Below, piece by piece: positions 2,877-64,000 of a stretch of DNA of 64,000 nt (the stretch's first letter is position 1; every line of letters begins with the position of its first letter). A program made the position numbers and the translations under genes. This DNA is from Flectonema sp. DT1601. Taxonomy: Eukaryota. Location: the NCBI GenBank assembly GCA_964019425.1, contig OZ025782.1:248001-312000 (forward strand), in the 5' to 3' direction. A model generated the notes under the pieces. That model was not told the origin of the DNA. It saw nothing but the letters and a program-made list of their open reading frames with translations, and searched no databases.

Positions 2877-3021
2877 GACTTCATTCTATATTGAAGTTGC
2901 TTATCGTTCTAAGATAAAAATCCATCGGAGCTCGCCAGGATAGGGCTAGCAATATTTATTTGCTTTTGTTCAATTTGAATTTTAATTTTTGACGTCTGGT
3001 CGTTTCACTATTACAGTCGAG
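2877..3021 (-). mobile_element. 5'-truncated fragment of the Penelope-like element 3' end (also 11782-11927, 17578-17648)
   Basis: Matches 8757-8894 (ORF stop region and 3' UTR). Confidence 0.8.
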
Positions 3022-7592: not shown

Positions 7593-8567
7593 AAATAAAT
7601 AAGGGAAAACCTACAAATCTACTCAAAGGTTGCTCCACAAGACCGTGACTGTAGTATCCGATCAGTCAAACTACCCTGCCACTGATTTTCACTTTAACAG
7701 CGAGCTATTAGTATATATTATTATGTCAGCTGTTTAAAAGAGAGGGAAGGGCTAAGCATGCGATGTCTTCAACTTCAGAGTTGGTTCTTCTATTTTGTAT
7801 GATCGACAACCATTCCAACCTTGGTGTATTAATGTGATGGAGAATACGATTATTGATATTGCTAATGTTGTTGTTTTTTGAACTCCACGCAGTTGATCTG
7901 GAAACCAAATTCATTATTATATCTCCCATTCTGTCGAAAAGCAATAATTAAAGAAGAGGAGAGACTTAATTCAGACGAGGAAAGAAGCCTCGAACACGAG
8001 GAGAGGATATAATCATTTCATTGATAATAACAAGCGTTTTGAATAAGATCTTTTCTTTGGCTCCATCATCATTATGGTTAAATATTAACAATTAGTTACA
8101 CCTGACCAATACCGAGTATAAGATTCATCCCCAGTTTGTCCGAAGCATTACATTGTAATGAGGGAGTACCGAAAAAGCTTTATATAAAAGTACCTCAAAA
8201 AAATTGGGAAGCGCGCAGCCCTTTCACAGCAACAAATGAAAACAAAAGGTTCACACATATGATGAACGGTCAGTTTATCGCTGGATCAGTATGCATTTTG
8301 CTAAGAAAGTTAGTAGGAAATAAAAATATTGTTGGGATTGTCAAACAAACGAATAAAAATAATTCGTTCAAGACATCATTTATTTTTTTTTTTTTTTTTT
8401 ATCAAACAAATAAAATAAATTAAACAAATAATTTAATAAGTTAGTATTAATGTTTATCAGTCAAAAGAAGGGGAGAGGGCGGGAAAATTCAATCGAACGC
8501 AAAAGTTCGTAAGACAACAAACAAATAATGGTTGGTTTCGGGCTAAAATTAAAAAAAATCTTAAGTT

Positions 8568-8763
8568 AGTATCATTAATTTTAGAACAAAAAAGTGAGAA
8601 TAAGAAAAGTAGAGATCAATAAAAAAAAAAAAAAAAAAAAAAGGGGGTATTCATTTCTGCAGTTTCCTAACATCAAAGGGTAATAGAATATGTAGTTTCA
8701 GGCCTTAATCTTATACTACTTGTCCCTTTTTAGGCCTTCATCAGTAAGTTCTAAGGGACTTCA
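8568..8763 (-). repeat. Penelope pseudo-LTR-like direct repeat (partner 10381-10562)
   Basis: ~190-bp direct repeats flank the RT ORF; both contain a hammerhead core. Confidence 0.75.
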
Positions 8764-8769
8764 TTCTAT
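8683..8769 (-). ncRNA. Hammerhead ribozyme, rearranged topology
   Basis: CUUA-CUGAUGA-AGGCCU...GUAG-UA-UAAG...AGGCCU-GAAA-CUAC on the minus strand, about 100 nt downstream of the RT stop. Confidence 0.7.
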
Positions 8770-8848
8770 GTTGAAGTTGCTATCGTTCAAAGATAAAAAT
8801 CCATCGGAGCTCGCCAGGATAGGGCTAGCAATGTTTATTTGCTTTTGC

Positions 8849-10285
8849 TCAATTTGAATTTTTGACGTCTGGTCGTTTCACTATTACAGTCGAGTTAATG
8901 GATGAGTCGTCATCCAATTTGCGTTTTATTTTATCTTCGCATATCATCAAAGGTCCTATATTCGCAGGTGTCATTGTAACATCCATATCAGTCTGAGCTT
9001 TTAATGGTATCATATGGAAACTATACTCTGTAGTTCGGTACATCTTGTCAAAATGATCGAAAGGGAGTCTTAAATCTTTTGTGCCTTTAAGAATGTCTCG
9101 GATGATCATGGACTCAAATGAGACTAGCGCAACAATAAAGTGAGTCATCCTTGTTTTCGCTTTATGTAGAATAAGTGCTGCGGCTGCTTCAGGATAATCG
9201 AAATCTGCTGGGTTAACGAAGTACTCGATTCTCCTGTTGAATTTAGTCATGCAAGCCATGTTAAGTACTTGTAGCGAGAACCAACCATCTGGTGATGGTT
9301 TATGCTCTGAGTTGTTCGGTTCTACTTTAAGAGATTCTTCATAAAATCGCTGTTGGTAGTTTTGCAGAAAACTGAAGTTAATTCTATCGATATATAAATG
9401 ATCTGCAATGAAGTTGAGCGATGCCCATCCGCATTCTCCACCGAGAAGACCTTCTCCTGATGTTTGATGTAGGGATGGTGGAAATCGTTTATCCAAGGAA
9501 TGGCTTGTAGAGCCTGTGTGGTTAATTGTATCCTTTTCGATGCTTAATGGGACTTTGTGACTAAACTTCTCAAAAGTAAGGTTGATACGTCGACGCATTG
9601 CAGCTGCTGTATTACCATCATCAATGTGAGAGCTAATGAAGCGGAGGCATGCTGCTCTGATATTGTCAGATTTATAGCCCCGGTTGAGTAATCTATAAGT
9701 TACCGCTTCAAGTTCCTGTAAAAAGTCTGCCTGGTTGTTGCAGATTTTTAGAGCTCGTAAGATCATGGTGGTAAAGATACCTGAACCCATTGATTCTTGA
9801 GCTGCGGAATGCTGATGGGTAAACCTTGTTGGCGTAATATGCCAACCCCTGGCTTTGTCATTAACACTTAAACGAATCCATCGTTTATTTGTGTTAGTGA
9901 TCTCTATTCGGATACGAATTCCTATATAAGAGACGTCATCGATATTATTCGAAGTATCAGTGTAATCCATTGAGTATAGACTTGCTGGTGGAGGGTCACA
10001 ACTCCAGGTGAGGAAGTCGTCGATGTATCTACACGAGTGGTCATGTTGCCGAGCTAAGTCTAGATTTTTTGCTTCAATTAAAGAATCGATATATGCGGAT
10101 TCAACTCTATAGCAGTAGAGATTTGCTATATCGCTACTGGCGTTGCCACCCATTGGAATGCCTATTGTTTGTCTCCAAATATAACCTCTTAATGCAATAA
10201 AGGAGGAGTCAATACAGAATTCAAGTAATTTTTGACATTCTGCAAGCGCAAGAGAAGGGAATCGTGTAGGGTCACTCGATTCAAG
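8849..10285 (-). CDS. 5'-truncated Penelope-like reverse transcriptase with C-terminal Josephin-like protease domain
   Basis: Frame is open upstream of the listed ATG to 10285: LLEFCIDSSFIALRGYIWRQTIGIPMGGNASSDIANLY...RYIDD, thumb RFTHQHS..GIF..ILRALKIC; then C241/H338/D353 and DGWFSLQVL. Confidence 0.85.
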   Translation of the reverse strand, partial: LESSDPTRFPSLALAECQKLLEFCIDSSFIALRGYIWRQTIGIPMGGNASSDIANLYCYRVESAYIDSLIEAKNLDLARQHDHSCRYIDDFLTWSCDPPPASLYSMDYTDTSNNIDDVSYIGIRIRIEITNTNKRWIRLSVNDKARGWHITPTRFTHQHSAAQESMGSGIFTTMILRALKICNNQADFLQELEAVTYRLLNRGYKSDNIRAACLRFISSHIDDGNTAAAMRRRINLTFEKFSHKVPLSIEKDTINHTGSTSHSLDKRFPPSLHQTSGEGLLGGECGWASLNFIADHLYIDRINFSFLQNYQQRFYEESLKVEPNNSEHKPSPDGWFSLQVLNMACMTKFNRRIEYFVNPADFDYPEAAAALILHKAKTRMTHFIVALVSFESMIIRDILKGTKDLRLPFDHFDKMYRTTEYSFHMIPLKAQTDMDVTMTPANIGPLMICEDKIKRKLDDDSSINSTVIVKRPDVKNSN

Positions 10286-10560: not shown

Positions 10561-10975
10561 CAGTTAGTTAGTATTAATGGTTATCAGTCATAAGAAGGGG
10601 AGAGGGAGGGAAAATTCAATCGAATGCAAAAGTTCGTAGGTATTAGGAAGTTCTAAGGGACTTCAGTTAGTTAATTAGCTAGCAGTATTAGTAAGTTCTA
10701 AGGGACTTCAGTTAGTTTAGTTAGCAAAATACAAACTGATGACTACGAGGGGTCTGGGTAGCCCGCATCAGTAAGTACCCAATCGCGAAGATTGTACTTT
10801 CACAGCTTCGGCTGGAAGTGATCGACTTCCAGCCTCCACCTTGCCCAGAGGCTAACAGGTTGTAAACAACTAAAGAAAATAAAAGAGAAATGATCTGGGA
10901 GTGGGGGGGACTTGGATAAATAAATCAAGGTTAACACGCAACAAATTAGACATGAATCATTATAACTGGATTCTG

Positions 10976-11010
<35 letters not shown>

Positions 11011-13289
11011 GGAAGTCCAATACATTGCGTACTGTGCATCGCTGATACAGCAAACTAGGGAGCATCGGGTTAACTCCCTAGAGCTACGAGGCAACAGCAA
11101 CGTAATTAGACCCAATCTTATTAGGATTGTTTTTTTATAGCTTCGGCTGACGGGGCATAATGAACACAGTATGCCTATTGTCAGCTTTCCACCTTGTCCG
11201 ATTGTTGTCAGGAGGTGATATGAGGATAACTAAAGAGAAAAGAAAACAAATAAATGAATATATAAATTTAAAAAGAAAATAAAATAAAATATATAAAAAC
11301 AAAGACGCTGGGGGCGGGGCGTTTGGATTCTGTAAGGGATAGAATTTTTCTTTATTTTATTTTTTTTGATAATGTTGTATATAACTAAAGGAGAGTTATC
11401 GAACACACACGCAAATCGCATGCTTTAAATAAACTACCAGAGAAAGAAATGCTGTCAAGTCAAATTGACCCGGGGACCACGCACGTGGGGGGGAGGTGAA
11501 AAAAATAAAAAGTCTTCCTTCTTTCATATACATCTTTCTTTATAATACGACCATATGCCCACACTCCACGAAAGAAAATAGAAAACCCCGGAACAGTACC
11601 GAGGATCGTTCACCCCCAGTTGTCCAAAGCATTATAATTGTACTGTGGGCTTACCGAAAAGCTTTAGAAATGTACCACAAAAAACTGGGCAGCACATAGC
11701 CATATCACTCAGCAAGAAATGAAAACCAAAAGGATCAGGTAAGATGACAGTCAGTTTAAGGTCATAACTGCGACGGACCTAGACTTCATTCTATATTGAA
11801 GTTGCTTATCGTTCTAAGATAAAAATCCATCGGAGCTCGCCAGGATAGGGCTAGCAATATTTATTTGCTTTTGTTCAATTTGAATTTTAATTTTTGACGT
11901 CTGGTCGTTTCACTATTACAGTCGAGCCTTGATCTTAAATAAGTTAGTATTAATAATTATCAGTCAATTAAAAAAAAAAAAAGGCAAAATTTCGTAGGAC
12001 AACAAACAAGTTGGTTTCGGACTAAGATTAAAAACAATCTTTCTTCGGACCATTCCCCTTACCCAGCCCTCTTTAGTGAAGAAAGCAAGGGGGACACTGC
12101 TCCTAAATCAGTTAGTTAGTATATATATACTTTGGAGTCACGTAAGTATCAACCTCTTGCAGGCAAACACAATGGCTAAAAGTAATTCTATACTAAAACT
12201 GTACCACTGGCCAGAAGATACGCAAGCTAACCACATGCACGAAGCAGGCAGTATAAGTGACGGATGATAAAGAGAGGAGGAAAAGTGGCAGAGAAATTTT
12301 GCTATTCGGTCCGATTCTTTACTCTTTTTTTCGCTGCGCAAAGAGTATTCATTCAGTTATTTTTTTTTTTGCCTTTCTTTTTGCCGCTTCTGCCAAACCC
12401 ATCCTTGGATTTTCATTTTTATCTTTCAACTACACCTCACTGTGTACTTAAACCGGTAAAATAAAGCATCCAACGAAAGCAAAAAAAAAATCGGAAAATA
12501 AAATTATTGAACCCTCCGAATAGCAAAATCCAGCGCAAAATAAATAAGTAAAAAAGAATCCGTGTTATATACGAGATACTATTGTCAATTATATCTATTT
12601 TTATATATATTTGTACCTACAAACCCATTGTTCGGTAGAAACAGAATTGCGGCAGCGTAAACTAACCTATTTCCTTTATTAGGATTTTGTACTGGTTGCG
12701 CACAAACAAAATAAAAGTGTGAGTGTAAGTAAAAAAGTGATGTTTGCCGATTCCTTCTTTTTCATCTTTTTTCGAAGCAGAGTCTTGTGTGATTCCCCAG
12801 CTTATTTCAAACAAGGAAAGAAGAACAAGAAATCTCTAGCACGAACTGAGACCAAAGGATCGTTGACATGTTTTCACACCGTGGATCGGTGGACTGATTA
12901 GATTTCTTTACCCCGCACTAGTGTACCAGCCGGTGTATTTGCATTAAATAACAGAAACAGATTCAATCCATAAGAGAAGAGGAATAACTTGATACTAATA
13001 TTAAATGGAAAGCCAACTTGAAACCGACCAAAACGAGAATAGGGTTCGGCCAAACCTGGTTGCAATATAAGAAAATCAACAATTGGTATCATGTAAAAAA
13101 TCCCATATGTGTTGTCGAAGATGGGGATTCGGGGCCACGAACTACAAGTTGAGCGCCCCATGCCTATCTACGCACAGACGAGTTTCCTACACGCCGCACT
13201 AACCAAGATGAGGTATGAGAGCGCCAAAAACAAGTATACATGATCAGCTGTCTAAGGCTTGACATGAATAGCTGTGGAGTGGCGAAACC

Positions 13290-52103: not shown

Positions 52104-55004
52104 TCATGCAGTTAAAAAGTCGCATACGAAGTATGAGTTGCTCCCGGTAATTTTAGCACCTGAAAAATCAGGAAACTCCTTTCCATTTGAAGTGAGAATC
52201 CCATTACGGTCTATTGTATATGGATAAGTAACTAAATGACATGTGATACCCTTTGATGATGAATCGCAGTATTCTTTCCAAGCCTTGTCGGTACGGTCTC
52301 GTACATATCGAGCGCATTCAGGTAGTTCAGGGCGTTCAATTTGCGACGGATAGGAACCCATAAAATTTAAGTGTTCAGTCCATAAAGACATTCTAAAACA
52401 ACGAACCATTCCAGTAGCTGACTGACGTATAAAGTGAGGTTGGCAAAGACCAACAGCTATTTCTGTGTCACGGTTACCAGACATCGATCTGTCGTTTATG
52501 TTTGCTGATCCCATAATTATGTATTCATCGTCAACGATCAACATTTTAGAGTGAACGTATATCGGACATCTTCTGTTTTTAATAAGCTTTTTCAATTCAG
52601 TAAACTTTTTGAACACTCCGTCTTTCGGCATCTCTTTCGCGATCGCTTTCTCACACGCATCTGAAAGGCTTTCCTTATTACAAGTTGCAAAGAATTGCAA
52701 ATAATCTTGAGGATGACTCTGTGACTTTACATCATTCAATGTTGATCCAATCTCTTTGTACATTGCCTTGATTGTGTGGTACTGCCAATGAAGTAATTCT
52801 TGCATGGGTGCGCTGGATGGATCACCTTCAGGAAAAAGAGGTATAAGGATGTAGGCGCAGTAAGGGTCATTTTGTCTAATCGCCCTTTGAATCCTTTTAA
52901 CGATAGTGGCTGGGATCATGTTTGAGGCTCCAGCGTCGGGTTTTTCAGACCAGAGTTCAGAGCTTCCCATGAAATATTGATTTTCTATAAAAAGAAATCG
53001 ACGACTCTTCTCAATTGCGTACACCCATGCTCTGTGACAGTCTGATTCAATTCCGTTCACTGTGAAGTCAGACGTCGTGTCTACGGATCTAAACAATTGA
53101 GCATTCCAAGCCTCAGCGTTTTGTTCGTCTAAAAGCACATCATCTTGCATTGGAATAATAGCGTTACCTCTGTATAACTCTTCTCTGTGACCTTGAGTTG
53201 ACCATCTTTGATGAAAGTTAGTGAGGGCGTCATGAGCAAGCTGACCCTCAACCATGCAATGAATATCCTCCCATGGTTGTCTCATTACATTTTTACCACC
53301 AGAATTGACAAGATTTTGATAATAATCGTGTTCGTGAATGTTGAATAAATGCTTTCCTGGACAATCCCAACGACCTCCAGTTAGATCGATCCCCCCCAAA
53401 AATGCGATTAAACGCCGTTTTCGAGACGATTCATTGTCGACTGGAGCGTCTAGGATGACACCCTTTTGATGATGAGTTAGTGTTGCTGTGAGACGCACAG
53501 ATGCAACGCTTCTCATCATAAGTCTGACTTTAACATTTGTCCCTCTAAAGTACGATGCACAGGAAGCAGAACCAGTTCCTGCCATTCCAGTTGCGTCATT
53601 CCAAATCATGATTAGAACTTTAACTCCTTGGTTTGCTTTTTCTTTTAACACATCACCAAGTCTGTGATGCCATTTTTTCCATAATGCCTGCTTTAATGAT
53701 TCTGGTGTATCAGGCTTAATACTAGAAGGTCCACTAGCTTCCATTCCATGGAATTCTTTACTGTTTGGGGATAGACGTTCACTTGCTGGTGGAGGCATTT
53801 CTCTAATTAATTGCATCGAAGGATCGACAGACCATCCATAGACGTATATCAACTCTCGTGATAATCTCATTCTGTGATAGAGGTCTACCCAATAGCTTTC
53901 ACGTTCATATGGTCTAGCTAGGTTTGTATATTCGTAAAGACTTATTGGTGCTAATCGTTGATTCCATTCCCTTCCAACATGTGCGGATTGATAAAGAGAA
54001 ACTCTGTTTCCTGATGTTGCTGCGAATTTTGTTCTCGGGATTTCCCATGTTAAAGTTTTTCCAGCTTTTTCATTTTCAGCTTCCAAGCATTCGATTTCAA
54101 CCATGAGTTCACCCGATGGTTTTGGTCTTCCGATATGAGGATCTTTGAAGAGTGGAACCACACCTCTGAATCGTCCACCATTTGACACCATGTTAAGTCC
54201 AAAGGCTGGTGCTAGGATTCCTTCACAAACTAATTCATTTCTGAATGCGCATCCCGACAGGACACTCAAATCTTCATCTTTGACTGCGAAGTAGAGTAGG
54301 TTAGTATTCGCGATACGAACAGTTTCTTCATGATTCCATCGTGGGTTAGTAGTATTCTGTTCTACTTTTGTAGCTGTTATTAGTCTTCCCTTGCGGTCAT
54401 AGACCTCAACGAAGGGATCTCCTGCTTTGTGTCCAAATAAATCGGATTTGGGAATACCTAAGGCTTCTGTGATTCTTATTCTGATTAGACCATGTGTTTG
54501 ATGATCGTAGCGTTCTTTTTGAGGAATCGGACGTGATCGAGGTTTGACTTGGTTTGGTTGGACTCCAAAAGTTTTTGCTGCACCCCATTCAACGTCATAG
54601 CTCGTTCCAAAGTTTGATTTCATAATTTCAGCGTCGTAGTATTCACCCATCCATAATGCCTTTACTAAGTCTCCTTCTTCATAGTGTGGGACTTCTCGTA
54701 TTGCTTCAGGGGAAATGATGTCGTAGAGTCGTTCGTTTGTGTATGTTGCCCATTTAACTTCATAGCATTCTTTTCCGTTTTCTAATCTTAGTGAGTTTAT
54801 TACAGCTGGCCAGTAGTCACCTTTCCAAAGAACTTCTACAGGCTCACCACTTTTATATTTAAAATGACCTTTATAATGTTTTTCCATCACTGCATTAAAT
54901 TTTTCAATGTGTCTTTTACGTTGGTCTGCAGACCTTCTGATGCAGGTACCCATCTCTCCATCTGTACGATCTGCCTTCGAAGCAAAACAGCACAAAAGCC
55001 GCAT
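52104..55004 (-). CDS. Phospholipase D, plant C2-PLD type, with two N-terminal Tudor/Agenet-like domains (paralogue A)
   Basis: HHQKGVILD and HSKMLIVDD HKD motifs, IENQYF, GSANINDRS, C2 domain (DPFVEV..NPRWN). Confidence 0.92.
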   Translation of the reverse strand: MRLLCCFASKADRTDGEMGTCIRRSADQRKRHIEKFNAVMEKHYKGHFKYKSGEPVEVLWKGDYWPAVINSLRLENGKECYEVKWATYTNERLYDIISPEAIREVPHYEEGDLVKALWMGEYYDAEIMKSNFGTSYDVEWGAAKTFGVQPNQVKPRSRPIPQKERYDHQTHGLIRIRITEALGIPKSDLFGHKAGDPFVEVYDRKGRLITATKVEQNTTNPRWNHEETVRIANTNLLYFAVKDEDLSVLSGCAFRNELVCEGILAPAFGLNMVSNGGRFRGVVPLFKDPHIGRPKPSGELMVEIECLEAENEKAGKTLTWEIPRTKFAATSGNRVSLYQSAHVGREWNQRLAPISLYEYTNLARPYERESYWVDLYHRMRLSRELIYVYGWSVDPSMQLIREMPPPASERLSPNSKEFHGMEASGPSSIKPDTPESLKQALWKKWHHRLGDVLKEKANQGVKVLIMIWNDATGMAGTGSASCASYFRGTNVKVRLMMRSVASVRLTATLTHHQKGVILDAPVDNESSRKRRLIAFLGGIDLTGGRWDCPGKHLFNIHEHDYYQNLVNSGGKNVMRQPWEDIHCMVEGQLAHDALTNFHQRWSTQGHREELYRGNAIIPMQDDVLLDEQNAEAWNAQLFRSVDTTSDFTVNGIESDCHRAWVYAIEKSRRFLFIENQYFMGSSELWSEKPDAGASNMIPATIVKRIQRAIRQNDPYCAYILIPLFPEGDPSSAPMQELLHWQYHTIKAMYKEIGSTLNDVKSQSHPQDYLQFFATCNKESLSDACEKAIAKEMPKDGVFKKFTELKKLIKNRRCPIYVHSKMLIVDDEYIIMGSANINDRSMSGNRDTEIAVGLCQPHFIRQSATGMVRCFRMSLWTEHLNFMGSYPSQIERPELPECARYVRDRTDKAWKEYCDSSSKGITCHLVTYPYTIDRNGILTSNGKEFPDFSGAKITGSNSYFVCDFLTA

Positions 55005-56372
55005 CTTTAATGCTGAGCGGCTGTAAGGAAAAGGTAAATAATTTATTTATTTTTTTAAAAAAAAAAATAATAACTGATGCTGTGTATAACTAAAAATATT
55101 GCTAGAAATAATTCATCTTCTTCTGAAAAAAAAAATAAATAAAATAATAATAATGACTAGCACTACTCACTGAAAGATTTTTAACAAGCCTCTGGGTAGT
55201 TTGGGTAGTAGATACACTTAACTGGTAGAAGGAAAACGAAAATTTTCCCCCTTTCCATTTTCTCGTTCGGAATTTAATTTTAAAAACAAAAAGGGAATAA
55301 ACGTGAATTCAAAATCACAAAAAGTTTTATTGAGTTTACAACTAAGGTAGGGATAATTACCTTAATAAGAAGACGTGCAACATCAGCTACACGAGAAGAA
55401 GAAAAAAAAGAGAGAAAAAAAGAAAAGACCCACAATTCACCGATTGTCGAAAGCGAATGGAAACCAAGAAGGAAAAAAAAAAAAACGATCGCTCTAATAA
55501 CCTTTTTTTTTTAAATTTTTTTTTAAATTCTTAAGCTATTGCTGTGACTGGGGAAAATTTGAATGTTTTTTTTTTGAATTTTGTAAAAATACAATAATTG
55601 TATCAATATAACGCAATACGATAATTTAATATTTTAACGCTAGTTAAGGATACATGACTATGGTGGAAAAAAAAACAAAAAAAAAAACAAAAAGAAAAAA
55701 AGAGTTTGGGGGGAAATACACGAGTTGAAAGCATCTCATTCTTAAGACGTCAATATTTATTGACAATTTACTTTTTTTTTTTTTTTTTTTTTTGATTTGA
55801 TTAGAAAAAAAACAACGTGTTGTGTCGGGGTCAATTTTTTTTCATCCAGCGGGGGAACAACTACAGAACCCTCCCTCCCACAAAGGATGTAAAATATATC
55901 TAAAAAAAAATATTATATCCCCATAATCTGTATTCCTTACAAAGCAAGAAAATAAGAATAGAAAAGTGTCTCACTTCGACAAGACTGACCTCCTTTCAAC
56001 ATTGAAGAGCCATAAAGGATAATCCACCGACCTGTTGTTGTTGATATTGCAAACGTTTACAAAAGGAGAAGGGAGAAAGGAGCAATTGGGGGGAAAGGGA
56101 GGAAAGAGAGAAACAATTCGAACAGAGCAAGGAACACAGAGAACTAGTGTTTCTTCTGTGATCGATTACACTGAAATATCAAAAAACAGACATTTAACGT
56201 CTCTAATCGCAAGTAGACATCATTTTTATTAGCCTTTGGTAAACTACAATTTTTTTTTTTTTTTTTTTTTTGTTCTTTTTTTTTTTTCATACCAATATCC
56301 ATTCTTTTTAGTTCATCGTGACGAATCCTTTTGCAAAGCCATTCACGGAAAGGAAAAGAAAAATCCCAACTC

Positions 56373-57250: not shown

Positions 57251-60157
57251 CTAGGCAGTCATATGATCAGGGAGTATGGAATCCTTACCCAAGATACTCG
57301 AACCCGGATAGTCTGGAAATTCTTTTGTTTGTCCCAAAGATAATTTTCCTTCCTTTGTAATTACGTATGGGTAAGCCAACAAATGACATGTCAACTCATT
57401 CGATGTACTACAGTAATCATTCCACGCTTGCTCAGTACGCTCTCTAACGTATCTTGAACAGTCAATTGTTTCTGGATTCCTGACAACGTCAGGAAGAGAT
57501 CCATAAAATTTCATATGTTCACACCACAGAGAAAGTCTAAAACACTTAACAGCACCATGAGCATCACTGCCAGTAAAGTGAGGTTGGCAAAGACCAACAG
57601 CTATTTCTGTGTCACGGTTACCAGACATCGATCTGTCGTTTATGTTTGCTGATCCCAAAATAATGTATTCATCATCAACGAGTAACATTTTAGAGTGAAT
57701 GTAGATTGCAGCTCTTCTGTTTGTAACCATGTTACGAAGTTCGTCATATTTTTTCATAAAACTGTTGCTCGGGACCATTTTCTTCAACGAATCACTCTCA
57801 GAAGAACTAAGAGATTCCCTGTTTCCAGCAGCAAAGAACTGCAAATAGTCCCTTGGGTGAGCTGGTGAATTTGCTTCTTTGAGAGTTCTTCCAATCGCAT
57901 CATACATCCCTTGAATCGTATTTTTCTGCCAACGAAGCAATTCCTGTACAACTGCACTCGCAGGTAATCCTTCAGGAAAGAGAGGAATAAGAACATAGAC
58001 ACAGTATGGCTCCTTGTTTCTGATTGCTTGCTGAATTCTCTTTGTGATGACCTGAGGGATTATGTTGGATGCCCCTCCGTGGGTTTTTTCATTGATCCAC
58101 ATTTCACTGCTTCCAATAAAGTACTGGTTTTCAATATAGATAAATTTGGTTGATCTCTCAATTGCGTCAACCCATGCACGTTGGCAATCCGCTTCGATAC
58201 CAACGACTGAGCTGTCGCTGGTGGTGTCAATTGAACGGAAGAGTTGGGCATTCCAAGACTCTTGATCATTGTTTTGGTAGATCCCTGAAGACTCCTTGTT
58301 GAGGACTTGTTTAGCGAGGGCGCCGCTGTCAATCTTAACTGAACCATCTTTTCCTCCCTGAGTCTTCCATCTGTTTTGAAAGTTCAGATATGCGTCGTAT
58401 GCAAGTGGACCCTCAACTTTGCTATGGATGTCGGACCACGGTTGTCTCATTGGTTTTCCTTCTCCCTTAGCTGCGTATTGTTGGTAGACATCGTGATTGT
58501 GAAGGCTGAAGAGATGTTTTGCAGGACAGTCCCAACGTCCTCCAGTCAAGTCGATTCCTCCAATAAAAGCAACAAGTCGAAGCATGTCTCCTTCAGCTGG
58601 AGCATCACAGATTACACCCTTTTGATGATGAGTGAGAGAGGCGCTTAGAACAGCTGATTGAACATCACGTTTCATACATCTGACTTGAACTGATGTGTCA
58701 CGAAAGAATTCACGGCAAGCTGCTGATCCGGTTCCTGCAGCACCGTAACCCGCTACTACTTCATCCCAAATCATAATACAAACAGGGACTCCGTCTCTAG
58801 CTTTCTTCTTGATGATCGCACCAAGAGTGCAGTTGCGTCTATCCCTAATAATCTTCTTTACTTCATCAGAATGAGATTCACTAAGAGGAATGGTACCATC
58901 TTCAATAGATGAAATAAGAGCTTCATCATCACCTAATCGTTCAGTTGTTCCTGGAGGTAGATTTCTTAATAACTGCATTGAGGGATCTACAGACCATCCG
59001 TAAATATAAATCATTTTTTTAGCATCAATTAAATTTTGATACAAATCTTCCCAACAACTTTCCCTAACGTATGGTCTCGCTAATGGGGTTCCCTCATACA
59101 GAGTTAAAGGAGCAAGCGTTTTGTTCCAATAATCACCCACGTAAGCCGATTGGTATAAAGTTGAGTTGTTTCCAGTGGTCGATCGAAACCTAGTGCGAGT
59201 GATTTCCCACTTGTTTAGGTTCTTAACAAGCAGATTATTTTGAAATTGTAATGTCAATTTAATTTCTCCAGTTCTTTTAACGCGTCCTAAAGTAACATCG
59301 TATAGCGGGATCGTTCCAGTGAAAAACCCGAATTGGATTAAATTAGACAGACCGTCTTCCATTGAGAGGAATCCCTTTGCTATGATCTCATTTCGAGCAG
59401 AACAGTTTCCGAAACAGTTCAGATCAGTGTCCTTGATGACGATGAAAATTAAATCAGTGTTGGCTATTCTTACAATCTCTTCGTGATTCCAAACTGGGTT
59501 ACTGGTCGACGGAATTGGGTTCGTTGATGAAATTAAACGTCCCTTTCTATCGTACAATTCACAATAAGGATCACCGTCAGTTGTTCCACACTGATCACTC
59601 TTCGGAAGGTCATTCGCTTGATGGATTTTTAAGGTTACCAGTCCATGGGCATATTCAAGGTTTTGTTCCCTGCGAGGGATTCCTGAATTCTGTTGTATCG
59701 TCGATGGTGAGACTCCACAATGTAATTCTCCGTCGGTCACTTGAACATCGTATTTTATACCCATGTAAGATTCAGCGATGATCGCATCTCTGTCTTTAAA
59801 AAAAACTCTCTCTCCCTCTCTGAATGAAGGAACAGCTTTCATGTCTGATGCCTTTACCATGACGTACTTCCCTTTACCTGCGGCGTGTAATGGAACTTCT
59901 TCAGCGATTCTGACCTCGTATCTAGTGTCAGTGGATGACTTGACCGGGTGACGAGTGTTTACAATTGCTGGAACCTCTTTACCGTCGACCATAATAAGAA
60001 CTGATTGCGAACTTAGAAACTCTCTCTTTCCCCAATGTCCTTTTAGTGCTTTCAGTAATTTGGACATCAAATGCTTTCTCCTGTCTGCCTTAGATGAGAG
60101 TAATGTAACATTTTCTCCTTCAGCTCTGGTCGCTCGAGTTGCAAAGCAACAAGACAT
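57251..60157 (-). CDS. Phospholipase D, C2-PLD type (paralogue B)
   Basis: HHQKGVICD and HSKMLLVDD motifs; same architecture as paralogue A. Confidence 0.92.
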   Translation of the reverse strand: MSCCFATRATRAEGENVTLLSSKADRRKHLMSKLLKALKGHWGKREFLSSQSVLIMVDGKEVPAIVNTRHPVKSSTDTRYEVRIAEEVPLHAAGKGKYVMVKASDMKAVPSFREGERVFFKDRDAIIAESYMGIKYDVQVTDGELHCGVSPSTIQQNSGIPRREQNLEYAHGLVTLKIHQANDLPKSDQCGTTDGDPYCELYDRKGRLISSTNPIPSTSNPVWNHEEIVRIANTDLIFIVIKDTDLNCFGNCSARNEIIAKGFLSMEDGLSNLIQFGFFTGTIPLYDVTLGRVKRTGEIKLTLQFQNNLLVKNLNKWEITRTRFRSTTGNNSTLYQSAYVGDYWNKTLAPLTLYEGTPLARPYVRESCWEDLYQNLIDAKKMIYIYGWSVDPSMQLLRNLPPGTTERLGDDEALISSIEDGTIPLSESHSDEVKKIIRDRRNCTLGAIIKKKARDGVPVCIMIWDEVVAGYGAAGTGSAACREFFRDTSVQVRCMKRDVQSAVLSASLTHHQKGVICDAPAEGDMLRLVAFIGGIDLTGGRWDCPAKHLFSLHNHDVYQQYAAKGEGKPMRQPWSDIHSKVEGPLAYDAYLNFQNRWKTQGGKDGSVKIDSGALAKQVLNKESSGIYQNNDQESWNAQLFRSIDTTSDSSVVGIEADCQRAWVDAIERSTKFIYIENQYFIGSSEMWINEKTHGGASNIIPQVITKRIQQAIRNKEPYCVYVLIPLFPEGLPASAVVQELLRWQKNTIQGMYDAIGRTLKEANSPAHPRDYLQFFAAGNRESLSSSESDSLKKMVPSNSFMKKYDELRNMVTNRRAAIYIHSKMLLVDDEYIILGSANINDRSMSGNRDTEIAVGLCQPHFTGSDAHGAVKCFRLSLWCEHMKFYGSLPDVVRNPETIDCSRYVRERTEQAWNDYCSTSNELTCHLLAYPYVITKEGKLSLGQTKEFPDYPGSSILGKDSILPDHMTA

Positions 60158-60540
60158 TTTTTCGAATTTTTTTTTTTTTTTTTTTTGTTCTGGATTCCCT
60201 TCCTTGGTTAGAAATATTATGTCATAAAATTAATAATTGAACCATTAATAAGAGTTGTTTTCTTGCTGAAAAATCAATACAAAAAAAAAAAAAAAAAAAA
60301 AGAAGAAGGAATAAAAAAAAATTACAATCAACCTGTCAGTAATACAAGAATAACGTTTTTTTTTTTTTTTTTTTTTTTTTAAAACTTTTAGCACTATAAA
60401 TATTTTTGATTTAAAAAAATAACTGAAAAGGAAAAGAAAAAAAAATACAAACAGGCGAACAATACAACAGCAAAAAAAAAAAGAGAATAAAAAAAAAAAA
60501 CACAAAGCAATCGGGTTAAGATTCCGTGAGTGTAAAATAA

Positions 60541-62157: not shown

Positions 62158-64000
62158 TCACATAAACTGACACCCTCCCCTATCAGTTGGCTTATCAACG
62201 GTTGGAACAGGCGGAGCATGACAAGCTTCCGTCACTCTTGGAAATACATCTCCAATGTGTTTATCAGATGCATCATCTCTTTGATAGAATAAGATGTAGG
62301 CGCTGCTTGTTACGACTGCCTCTTCTGCTGTTTGAGTATTAAAACGAGTCGGGTGTATTGTTTGATGAGTGAGAACATCGTTGTACGTCCACCAAGTACC
62401 AGTGTGATCAAGACGAACTTGGGAATAATAGTGTCCTGCAGTAGCTGAACCGATATGATTCAGCACTGCGTATAAAGTGTACGTGTGTTCTCCAATTTTT
62501 AATCCTGACAACGGAAATTTAATAAATGTATTAAGTTTAGTTGTCGAGTAGCCATCAAAAGTGAATCTCTTCAACTGAATTACAAGAATCAAAGGAGATA
62601 ATTTTATTTCTAATTTTTTCAAAGCAGCATCGTCTCTCTCGACATCTGACACAACAGTTGGTTGAAATGTTCCATTAAAGCTGAGTACAAACTCTGATTT
62701 ATCCTTTAACGTAATCGCTGTTAGATTATCTAAAACTATTCCGTTTTCATCCATAAGAATCAATTCATTAGTTATCTGGATCGACTCTAAGTCATTAATC
62801 TGAATACACCTTCTAACCGTTTTCCAAATCTCACCTTTGATCGCTTTTGGAGTTGTTTCAGTAAGACTTTTAATTATAAATGGATTCAGTTTTTTTGAAT
62901 CACCCTTCACAACAACAGTATCAGCAATGGTGATTGCTATCAAAGTTTCATTCTCAGCAAGCATGGGAACGACCGTCGGAGATGTTAAATCTTTAAGCAT
63001 CGCATCACCAGGAACAATAAAGCCATTATCATCTTTTTCACTGTAGTCAACAACCATTAGATCCTCAACCTTCAACGGTCTTTGTTTGCATAAAGATTTT
63101 AACAAACCTCTGCTGGTACCTTCAGGAACTGATGCTTTCAATGTGATTGAATAGTCATTCGTCGTTAGGTAGAATTGCTGCTCAATGTAGTCACCACCGA
63201 GTTCCAAGTCTCGACTGCGACACTTTGAACAGTTGATTGAGATGTCTTCAGGTGTACTAAACTTTTCAAGACAAGAATCTAAAGTCGATCCATCCAGAAC
63301 TGGTGCTTGAACTTTTTCAAGTTCAAATTCTACATCAGCAGACCACACTGGTCGGTGTTCTTTGTGGAGAACACCATCATCCCAAACAATTGATATATGA
63401 CGCTCTGTTTTATTAGCACCTGGTAAATCATAGTCTAACACAACTTTACATCCAGTACAACTACCTAACCAACTACAATGCAAGCATCGTAGAGGATTGT
63501 TTGACTTAACATCTACAATATAAAAAGGTGTCGGTTTTAATGCCAACGAGTAGTCAGGAACCATCGTTTGAACTTCTTTCTTCAGTATGTCGTAGAGTCC
63601 TTTTAGTGTCAGTTGTTTGTCAGTAAAAAACGGTATCTGGATGATAAATGGTTTTCCCAAAAGCCGATTCTCCCCAGAAAACCTATGTGAAATATGCAAT
63701 GTCACTATTTTTTCACTATCAGAAAGTTTCTCGCTCATATAATAGATCGGTACTTCGAAACCTGCAGGATCGGCAAGATTAAATCTATGCGCTGGTACTT
63801 GTGACTGAGTAGATGCAATGCCGGATTTGTATAAAATTCGTCTGACGACAGAGAATTGAACTTGAGCGACTAAAACAGAGCAATTTGGGAACTTTTCAGC
63901 AACCACAACGGCTAAGTCGGAGATCAATTGTTTGTCACGAGGGACTGTCAGTCTCATTTTCTGATAGTTTCCTCCAATTTCTCGAATAATTACATCACAA
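62158..64000 (-). CDS. Ubiquitin-specific protease, USP32-like, 5' part outside window
   Basis: LVIQLKRF, His box NHIGSATAGHY, AYILFYQR; CxxCxWxxxCxGC motif; C-terminal CaaX CQFM; frame open to window end. Confidence 0.88.
   Translation of the reverse strand, partial: CDVIIREIGGNYQKMRLTVPRDKQLISDLAVVVAEKFPNCSVLVAQVQFSVVRRILYKSGIASTQSQVPAHRFNLADPAGFEVPIYYMSEKLSDSEKIVTLHISHRFSGENRLLGKPFIIQIPFFTDKQLTLKGLYDILKKEVQTMVPDYSLALKPTPFYIVDVKSNNPLRCLHCSWLGSCTGCKVVLDYDLPGANKTERHISIVWDDGVLHKEHRPVWSADVEFELEKVQAPVLDGSTLDSCLEKFSTPEDISINCSKCRSRDLELGGDYIEQQFYLTTNDYSITLKASVPEGTSRGLLKSLCKQRPLKVEDLMVVDYSEKDDNGFIVPGDAMLKDLTSPTVVPMLAENETLIAITIADTVVVKGDSKKLNPFIIKSLTETTPKAIKGEIWKTVRRCIQINDLESIQITNELILMDENGIVLDNLTAITLKDKSEFVLSFNGTFQPTVVSDVERDDAALKKLEIKLSPLILVIQLKRFTFDGYSTTKLNTFIKFPLSGLKIGEHTYTLYAVLNHIGSATAGHYYSQVRLDHTGTWWTYNDVLTHQTIHPTRFNTQTAEEAVVTSSAYILFYQRDDASDKHIGDVFPRVTEACHAPPVPTVDKPTDRGGCQFM

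Follow-up and report, generated by a model that had tools for sequence, protein, structure and literature searches.

A stretch of 64,000 nucleotides (nt) from Flectonema sp. DT1601 (contig OZ025782.1, positions 248,001 to 312,000), referred to here as the window and numbered from its first letter, carries on its minus strand a candidate hammerhead ribozyme in a terminal repeat of a Penelope-like retroelement (PLE). All conserved hammerhead nucleotides and three perfect stems were found within 8759 to 8692 (minus strand), by reading of the sequence and by a scripted pair check. The motif is quite probably a type-CSG hammerhead, that is, a hammerhead with a non-circularly permuted strand order, and it is predicted to cut the RNA of the element in cis between A8714 and U8713. 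Its assignment as a further member of type CSG in a new biological setting, a PLE, was supported by the comparisons that were made, with catalysis as a prediction from the sequence.

Anatomy and classification of the motif

Read on the minus strand from 8769 to 8683, the motif consists of an outer-helix arm AUAGAAU (8769-8763), GAA, a clamp-helix arm GUCCCUU (8759-8753), AGAA, the stem I strand CUUA (8748-8745), the core box CUGAUGA (8744-8738), the stem II strand AGGCCU (8737-8732), AAA, the second clamp arm AAGGGAC (8728-8722), AA, the stem III strand GUAG (8719-8716), U8715, A8714, the stem I strand UAAG (8713-8710), the linker AUUA (8709-8706) between the stem I and stem II strands, the stem II strand AGGCCU (8705-8700), the core box GAAA (8699-8696), the stem III strand CUAC (8695-8692), AU, and the second outer-helix arm AUUCUAU (8689-8683). 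When the window was sliced by script, every pair in the five helices was Watson-Crick, the outer helix and the clamp having 7 base pairs (bp) each and stems I, II and III having 4, 6 and 4 bp. The permuted hammerhead described in the initial annotation, with its named core boxes and stems on the minus strand, was thus confirmed in every pair. In hammerhead numbering the core is complete (C3-A9 as CUGAUGA, G12-A14, the pair A15.1-U16.1 with U16.1 at U8715, and A at H17, which is A8714). The A15.1-U16.1 pair extends stem III (GUAG/CUAC), and stems I, II and III adjoin the core directly. The predicted cut was placed from this numbering, and the position given in the initial annotation agrees with it, as a position and as a prediction.

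Three blocks were defined by Eckert, Friedrich, Weinberg and Weinberg (2023, Nucleic Acids Research; PMC10085705): C (stem I-CUGAnGA-stem II), S (stem III-site-stem I) and G (stem II-GAAA-stem III). The circular orders of these blocks are CGS in type I, GSC in type II and SCG in type III (PMC10085705). The order in the window, from 5' to 3', is C (8748-8732), S (8719-8710) and G (8705-8692), each block being uninterrupted. Block C was located by sequence, by a scanner match with C3 at 8744 and by the pair check, block S by its pairing with CUUA and CUAC, and block G by sequence and pair check. This order is the type CSG of Eckert et al. (PMC10085705), in line with the earlier statement that rare non-circularly permuted hammerheads had already been reported. 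The statement that no type I, II or III substrate strand flanks the core also held: a search of 300 nt to either side for another substrate strand (at least 2+2 pairs) returned none except one weak 3+2 match at 9025, and a conventional type I, II or III reading is therefore unavailable. The pseudoknot-free fold and the substrate strand adjoining through a closed loop, by which canonical types I, II and III are recognised, were both absent from the window motif.

A custom scanner that accepted all six orders of the three blocks returned, from the whole 64-kb window, the CSG match (stems 4, 6, 4) and one weak GCS match (3, 3, 7). When the window was shuffled 300 times by a first-order Markov model, stems as long as (4, 6, 4) or longer turned up once in any order and in 0/300 in the CSG order, and matches with at least 14 total stem pairs occurred at 0.07 per window. 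As the clamp helix was left outside this test, the true chance odds are lower still. Rfam 15 gave no hammerhead at gathering scores for the whole window, nor at E ≤ 10 for 8400-9100, and returned just a chance-level HTH-XRE match; this silence is expected, because covariance models cannot represent crossed stems. The motif could nevertheless have no ribozyme ancestry and resemble a hammerhead by chance, in repeat DNA rich in AT; in favour of this the lack of an Rfam match might be cited, together with the fact that the window was one of very many scanned, so that rare chance motifs are expected. Almost no weight can be given to this explanation, in view of the 0/300 shuffles with the clamp helix not yet counted, the placement of the motif behind a reverse transcriptase (RT) in a repeat, its perfect conservation in a diverged contig and the presence of the same architecture in the Naiad elements (see below).

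Most of the minimum-free-energy fold (-21.1 kcal/mol, z = -2.1) was accounted for by two hairpins enclosed by the outer helix, those of the clamp and of stem III, and the loop-loop duplex energy for stem II was -11.2 kcal/mol. In the mechanism proposed here, two hairpins would form first: the clamp hairpin, with block C as its 24-nt loop, and the stem III hairpin, with a 20-nt loop containing the site, the stem I strand, AUUA, the stem II strand and GAAA. Pairing between the two loops, over 6 bp in stem II and 4 bp in stem I, would then build the normal three-way core in the form of a double pseudoknot. Stems I and II would be kept next to each other by the clamp and the AUUA linker, which would take the part that loop-loop contacts play in ordinary hammerheads, following the argument of Eckert et al. 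(PMC10085705), and the RNA of the element itself would be cleaved in cis after A8714. By analogy with other PLEs, the role of this cleavage might be the trimming of tandem or read-through transcripts of arrays in which an open reading frame (ORF) alternates with pseudo-long terminal repeats (pLTR-ORF-pLTR). The role of the hammerhead is unsettled even in canonical PLEs, and for one element insertion was obtained in vitro without need for cleavage, with no RNA-seq reads ending at the site.

The GUCCCUU/AAGGGAC helix, which the initial annotation had proposed as a brace, is equivalent to the helix flanking block C in the published type CSG (PMC10085705); in the window it is perfectly paired and connects stems I and II at their far ends, and its 3' arm was also found in the minimum-free-energy fold. 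The proposed pairing of the outer AUAGAAU/AUUCUAU helix is present at the 3' repeat copy alone (whole span 8683-8769); since the 5' arm of this helix falls beyond the repeat, the motif does not include it as a constant feature. It had also been suggested that two RNAs might act as a reciprocal dimer, block C of one pairing with blocks S and G of another via the palindromic AGGCCU. The stem II palindrome is present and would permit intermolecular pairing, and dimeric PLE hammerheads were reportedly described by Lunse et al. in 2017. Dimeric hammerheads of PLEs are likewise on record in PMC4209133. Such a dimer appears highly unlikely, however, since the clamp helix and the 4-nt linker keep both partners in one molecule, and it is superfluous, as CSG-1 and CSG-2, the two published type-CSG sequences, are cleaved during transcription as single RNAs (PMC10085705). 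The palindrome itself looks incidental, because stem II is non-palindromic in the other seven type-CSG sequences (five Naiad examples, CSG-1 and CSG-2).

Type CSG was known only from CSG-1 and CSG-2, two nearly identical soil-metagenome sequences, which cleave in vitro at the expected site during transcription at 0.004 (CSG-1) and 0.026 per min (PMC10085705). In that paper they are known from metagenomic DNA only, have no association with other ribozymes and are given no host or function, and the authors considered type CSG's biological relevance to be less well supported for lack of covariation. The window motif and CSG-1/2 are alike in the C-S-G order on one strand, in the core and in the double-pseudoknot topology. 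In both, a helix that flanks block C fastens stems I and II to each other at their far ends, stem III is preceded by a 2-nt spacer (AA in CSG-1 and in the window), and a short A/U linker connects stem I with stem II (UUAAU in CSG-1/2, AUUA in the window). In contrast, there is no sequence similarity outside the core; the window clamp is attached by a 4-nt AGAA and a 3-nt AAA linker, whereas that of CSG-1/2 is attached directly; stem I has 4 bp in the window and 6 in CSG-1/2; A10.1-U11.1 stands in place of G-C, and GUA in place of GUC; and the window motif sits in a retroelement of a protist genome, whereas CSG-1/2 come from soil metagenomes. The published search descriptors required CUGAUGAG ... 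CGAAA, that is, G10.1-C11.1 (PMC10085705), and the window motif escapes them because A10.1-U11.1 replaces this pair; G10.1-C11.1 is a search criterion of Eckert et al. and not a stated definition of type CSG.

Hammerheads are typical of PLE pLTRs. The canonical type I hammerheads of PLEs resemble the window motif in lying in pLTRs, on the sense strand, and in their presumed processing of tandem transcripts (Cervera and de la Pena 2014, PMC4209133), but differ from it in the order C-G-S, a very short stem III, the absence of a pseudoknot and in often being dimeric. The type-SGC hammerheads (HRIMA-1 and variants; PMC10085705) share with the window motif a non-circular permutation, two pseudoknots, a direct linker joining stem I to stem II and a joining helix. 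They differ from it in the S-G-C order and in their origin, as they were found in metatranscriptomes beside hairpin ribozymes, that is, in circular-RNA-like agents (PMC10085705).

Naiad consensus sequences and the host retroelement

The Naiad PLEs were described by Craig, Yushenova, Rodriguez and Arkhipova (2021, Molecular Biology and Evolution; PMC8557442) as lacking canonical hammerheads, and no permuted fold is given in that paper. Some Naiads were reported to have a catalytic core that fits no descriptor, and eight to have CUGANGA and GAAA 35-50 nt apart ('HHR_half_core'; PMC8557442); the distance from CUGAUGA to GAAA in the window motif is 38 nt. Consensus sequences in the supplement of that paper were parsed by eye, and the names used here for examples (a), (d) and (e) were inferred from file order. 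Five nematode Naiad consensus sequences were found to hold perfect C-S-G hammerheads including the clamp helix. Example (a), just before Naiad-2_Nbra, has the clamp AAGAUCAUCC/GGAUGAUCUU, stem I CCUUA/UAAGG, the core CUGAGGA, stem II GUUCC/GGAAC and stem III AAUAUCCG/CGGAUAUU. Naiad-2_Nbra itself (b) has the clamp AAAAACCCCCUC/GAGGGGGUUUUU, stem I GCUUA/UAAGC, the core CUGACGA and stem II GUCCC/GGGAC, and Naiad-3_Nbra (c), which had been flagged as a half-core, has the clamp GAGCCUCCC/GGGAGGCUC, stem I UCUUA/UAAGA, the core CUGAUGA and stem II GUCC/GGAC; stem III is GCUCG/CGAGC in both. For example (d), from part 13 (Naiad_Parc or a neighbour), the clamp is CGAAGGG/CCCUUCG, stem I GUCGUA/UACGAC, the core CUGACGA, stem II GGUCC/GGACC and stem III 11 bp long. 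Example (e), just before Naiad_Hpol and probably Naiad_Hcon, has the clamp GAUGCGCUGGUC/GACCAGCGCAUC, stem I AACUCA/UGAGUU, the core CUGAUGA, stem II GCCUC/GAGGC and stem III CAUGAUUCG/CGAAUCAUG.

Across the eight sequences (five Naiad, CSG-1, CSG-2 and the window), the clamp, stem II and stem III were seen by eye to differ and yet to remain complementary, and CUUA/UAAG is present within stem I in the window and in Naiad examples (a), (b) and (c). In each of the five Naiad examples the site is GUC and the closing pair G10.1-C11.1, against GUA and A10.1-U11.1 in the window. The Naiads are PLEs with an N-terminal endonuclease (EN), and the window element, whose ORF is truncated but whose longer RT relatives have this domain, is probably of the same kind; the motif lies in the 3' region of both. 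It is found at the extreme 3' end of the consensus in Naiad-2_Nbra and Naiad-3_Nbra, whereas about 190-320 nt of element follow it in the window. The Naiad hosts are animals, and the window host is a diplonemid-like protist. Several other Naiad 3' ends were rejected as a misfit to the C-S-G order, as they looked S-G-C-like or split. The spider- and part-19-type 'CCCCUGACGAGAC' cores likewise appeared to be S-G-C-like or to have their stem II partner elsewhere. Three related Naiad consensus sequences in File_S5 parts 10-11 (PMC8557442) show block S, a linker (UUAAU) and block G, followed ~27 nt later by AUCCUA-CUGAUGA, with the stem II partner GGCUCC upstream of block S, which is a split, S-G-C-like layout.

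The PLE context claimed in the initial annotation was upheld, as the motif is part of a terminal direct repeat that follows an RT ORF, and longer relatives of this RT combine GIY-YIG and RT domains. The middle copy of a ~9-kb segmental repeat has an insertion of ~2.1 kb relative to the first copy, and its features all lie on the minus strand. The 5' direct repeat copy (10562-10380, ~190 bp) carries a damaged ribozyme, from the clamp at 10558-10552 to stem III at 10494-10491. The RT ORF (10285-8849) has 478 codons from stop to stop, is 5'-truncated, and contains the RT motifs GIPMGG and RYIDD followed by a Cys-protease-like C-terminal part (GECGWASLNF). The pLTR-like 3' direct repeat copy (8763-8567) is 86% identical over 199 aligned positions to 10562-10380, and a further ~130 nt of insertion follow it. 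The ribozyme is located at the extreme 5' edge of this 3' repeat, 80 nt past the ORF stop and on the ORF strand. A stretch of ~70 bp ending ...TAATACTAACT (8439-8511, minus strand), with its other copy at 10562-10629, flanks the insertion when compared with the uninterrupted segmental copy at 1656-1728, and is either the tail of the element or a long target duplication. The direct repeats flank the ORF in a pLTR or partial-tandem organisation and, by their arrangement, fit the pseudo-LTRs of PLEs. Tail-to-head junctions (...ACTAACT followed by GAAGTCCC) were found at three places per segmental copy.

The window ORF begins inside the RT, without the GIY-YIG part, and is 99% identical to a cluster of 610-amino-acid proteins (59 members) that reaches further upstream. 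Pfam gave no match for the window ORF, and a protein atlas returned sub-threshold leads only. Josephin or UCH protease domains were found after the RT in RT relatives. A GIY-YIG domain precedes the RT in P0027, labelled Diplonema papillatum (GIY-YIG 787-874, 23.8 bits against a cut-off of 22.6; RT 1261-1632), in P0031 (GIY-YIG 243-340, 22.2 bits; RT 738-1107) and, weakly, in P0029 (GIY-YIG 252-287, RT ~1001-1067, UCH 1850-2049). Between EN and RT, a CxC-like 'NCPCH' and 'PVDKL', with a VDK motif, were seen by eye in P0031, and 'TCEC' and 'TPTDKAAQN' in P0016. An N-terminal GIY-YIG followed by RT is the domain order of the Naiad/Chlamys clade of PLEs (Craig et al. 2021, PMC8557442), in which a CxC and a DKG/DKA-type motif lie between the two domains and the RT fingers contain an IFD; in one Chlamys family the protein is extended at its C terminus by a Josephin-like part. 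In 8849-9600 (minus strand), a conserved GECGWA(S/A)LNF follows the RT, at the place where distant relatives have Josephin/UCH deubiquitinase domains, so that a cysteine protease may be encoded in this C-terminal half of the RT ORF.

The ~9-kb segment is present three times in 1-20200 of the window, at offsets of about 6.9 and 9.2 kb and with 74-100% identity, and pieces of the family of this retroelement are scattered through each of them. In the third copy the repeat (18130-17960) has no ribozyme. Fragments with GAAGTCCCTTAGAACTT(A/C)C and then TAATAC... occur on the minus strand at 10710-10680, 10665-10635, 1800-1770 and 1755-1725, each preceded by the tail ...CTAACT. At the tail-to-head junctions the ribozyme's first 19 nt recur and end where the core begins, and a fragment at 2877-3021 (and 11782-11926) stops exactly at GAAGTC; the 5' edge of the ribozyme is a recurrent breakpoint. 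An upstream segment at 10780-10736 (minus strand), present also at about 1870-1826 and 18233-18195, has ACUUACUGAUG in common with the ribozyme and is a relic that reads GGGUA CUUA CUGAUGC GGGC UACCC ... GUAG UC AUCAG, with no block G after it. It looks like decayed blocks C and S of a related type-CSG hammerhead, and its CUGAUG/CAUCAG can also form a plain hairpin. In a marine RNA-library contig the entire insertion is missing, 8539 being separated from 10556 by 8 other letters; this form, from a related genome, is either recombined or like an empty site.

Conservation and decay of the motif

Sequence of the element was found in only two sequencing runs, one of which is a marine metatranscriptome. 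A 709-nt contig of this metatranscriptome run spans 8655-9357. Of its 39 substitutions at least 37, and of its 8 gaps at least 7, fall in 8770-9357 (588 nt), and 0 are listed in the 87-nt motif (8683-8769). At the flanking rate of 37/588, zero changes in 87 positions has a probability of P = 0.0035 (Fisher one-sided 0.005), and this single extra diverged contig points to modest conservation. The contigs of the second run (X1) were identical to the window where they overlap it, and this run may come from the source organism. Both runs consist of assembled contigs, which are blind to RNA ends, and a contig spanning the uncut site is uninformative on cleavage.

A number of observations weigh against the motif being an active type-CSG ribozyme. 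Within the motif, the closing pair of stem II is A10.1-U11.1 (A8737-U8700) and not G-C, stem I has only 4 bp, and the site triplet is GUA and not GUC; each of these three features may slow the ribozyme. The 5' repeat ribozyme has three changes, A9 to G (10537), an A-U to G.U change in stem I (10511) and a G-C pair changed to an A.C mismatch in stem II (10502), of which, judged from the sequence, one is harmless and two are damaging, and its core, CUGAUGG, departs from the conserved CUGAnGA. The two repeat copies differ at 3/68 positions inside the ribozyme and at 6/100 plus indels outside it, with no extra likeness inside; the ribozyme is thus as diverged as the rest of the repeat, as neutral decay after insertion would give. 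The covariation check across genomic copies that had been proposed in the initial annotation was carried out on two genomic copies and one contig of this lineage, and no compensatory changes were found among them. As read by eye, the helix differences across lineages would amount to strong qualitative covariation. With a truncated ORF and a damaged 5' repeat copy, the window insertion is probably dead as an element.

Metagenomic relatives of the RT weigh in the same direction. No convincing hammerhead in any of the six orders was found in 80 loci kept of 458 confirmed (23-37% protein identity, 270,532 nt); the strict scan gave 1 weak GCS match and the relaxed scan 7 weak matches, none of which was CSG. 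Rfam, run on 20 of these 80 loci, gave no ribozyme and only a c-di-AMP riboswitch in L019. The motif is therefore not universal in the wider RT family. The riboswitch of L019 (276-405) scored 78 bits; its contig probably comes from a bacterium, and the RT relative on it may be a different kind of protein.

These points raise the question of whether the motif, although a true type-CSG hammerhead by descent, is a catalytically dead or very slow relic carried in the repeat. Such a relic would be in keeping with A10.1-U11.1 where all seven other type-CSG sequences have G-C, with a stem I that is the shortest of the set, with the visible decay of the 5' repeat copy, with the 5'-truncated RT ORF, and with the slowness of even CSG-1 (0.004 per min; PMC10085705). 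However, the 3' copy has kept every catalytic base of the core, and the motif is unchanged in a copy whose ORF is ~6% different. Non-G-C closing pairs also occur among the PLE hammerhead motifs listed by Craig et al. (for example 'ctgatgat' then 'tgcc ... ggca tgaa'), although that list does not show activity (PMC8557442). A dead or very slow relic was considered unlikely, and cleavage in cis by a type-CSG hammerhead was retained as the preferred reading.

Host genome and implications for Penelope-like elements

In 20000-64000 of the window, the long ORFs are nearly all on the minus strand and uninterrupted, and many poly(A)/poly(T) tracts of 20-35 nt lie between ORFs, a layout that is polycistronic and euglenozoan-like. 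The ORFs encode two phospholipase D paralogues (52104-55046 and 57251-60229), threonine synthase, SRP54, leucine-rich repeat (LRR) proteins and others. The SRP54 ORF is 69% identical to that of Diplonema papillatum, 62% identical to a protein of the 'Hpha' transcriptome, a tag which we take to be Hemistasia, and about 55% identical to kinetoplastid proteins. By these similarities the host genes point to a diplonemid-like euglenozoan. An open frame at 62158-63999 (minus strand), which runs off the end of the window, has a UCH ubiquitin-hydrolase domain, and could be either a gene of the host or the end part of a further element in this family.

In a literature search that did not cover subscription journals, no paper was found to report a retroelement with a type-CSG hammerhead or to reinterpret the Naiad half-cores; in a 2026 preprint on animal retrozymes, Naiads are mentioned solely as a PLE clade. 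The window supplies a genomic host for type CSG, a Penelope-like retroelement of a marine protist. New with it are the CSG topology in exactly its published form, the occurrence of this topology in nematode Naiad consensus sequences and a first case outside animals. Annotation pipelines and Rfam-type models would overlook both the window motif and the Naiad type-CSG examples.

Type CSG could be the native ribozyme of PLEs with an N-terminal EN, from diplonemids to nematodes, with CSG-1 and CSG-2 derived from retroelements of soil eukaryotes and the permutation either old in this clade or repeatedly arisen; this broader proposal is put forward tentatively, as one that could well fail. Several questions are now testable: how far the core tolerates A10.1-U11.1 in the pseudoknotted frame, whether the reported absence of hammerheads from Naiad and Chlamys elements (PMC8557442) was due to descriptors that assume types I-III, and whether a large retroelement clade routinely uses a rare permutation as a functional component. 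If the broader proposal is true, a clade described as having no hammerheads would carry permuted ones.

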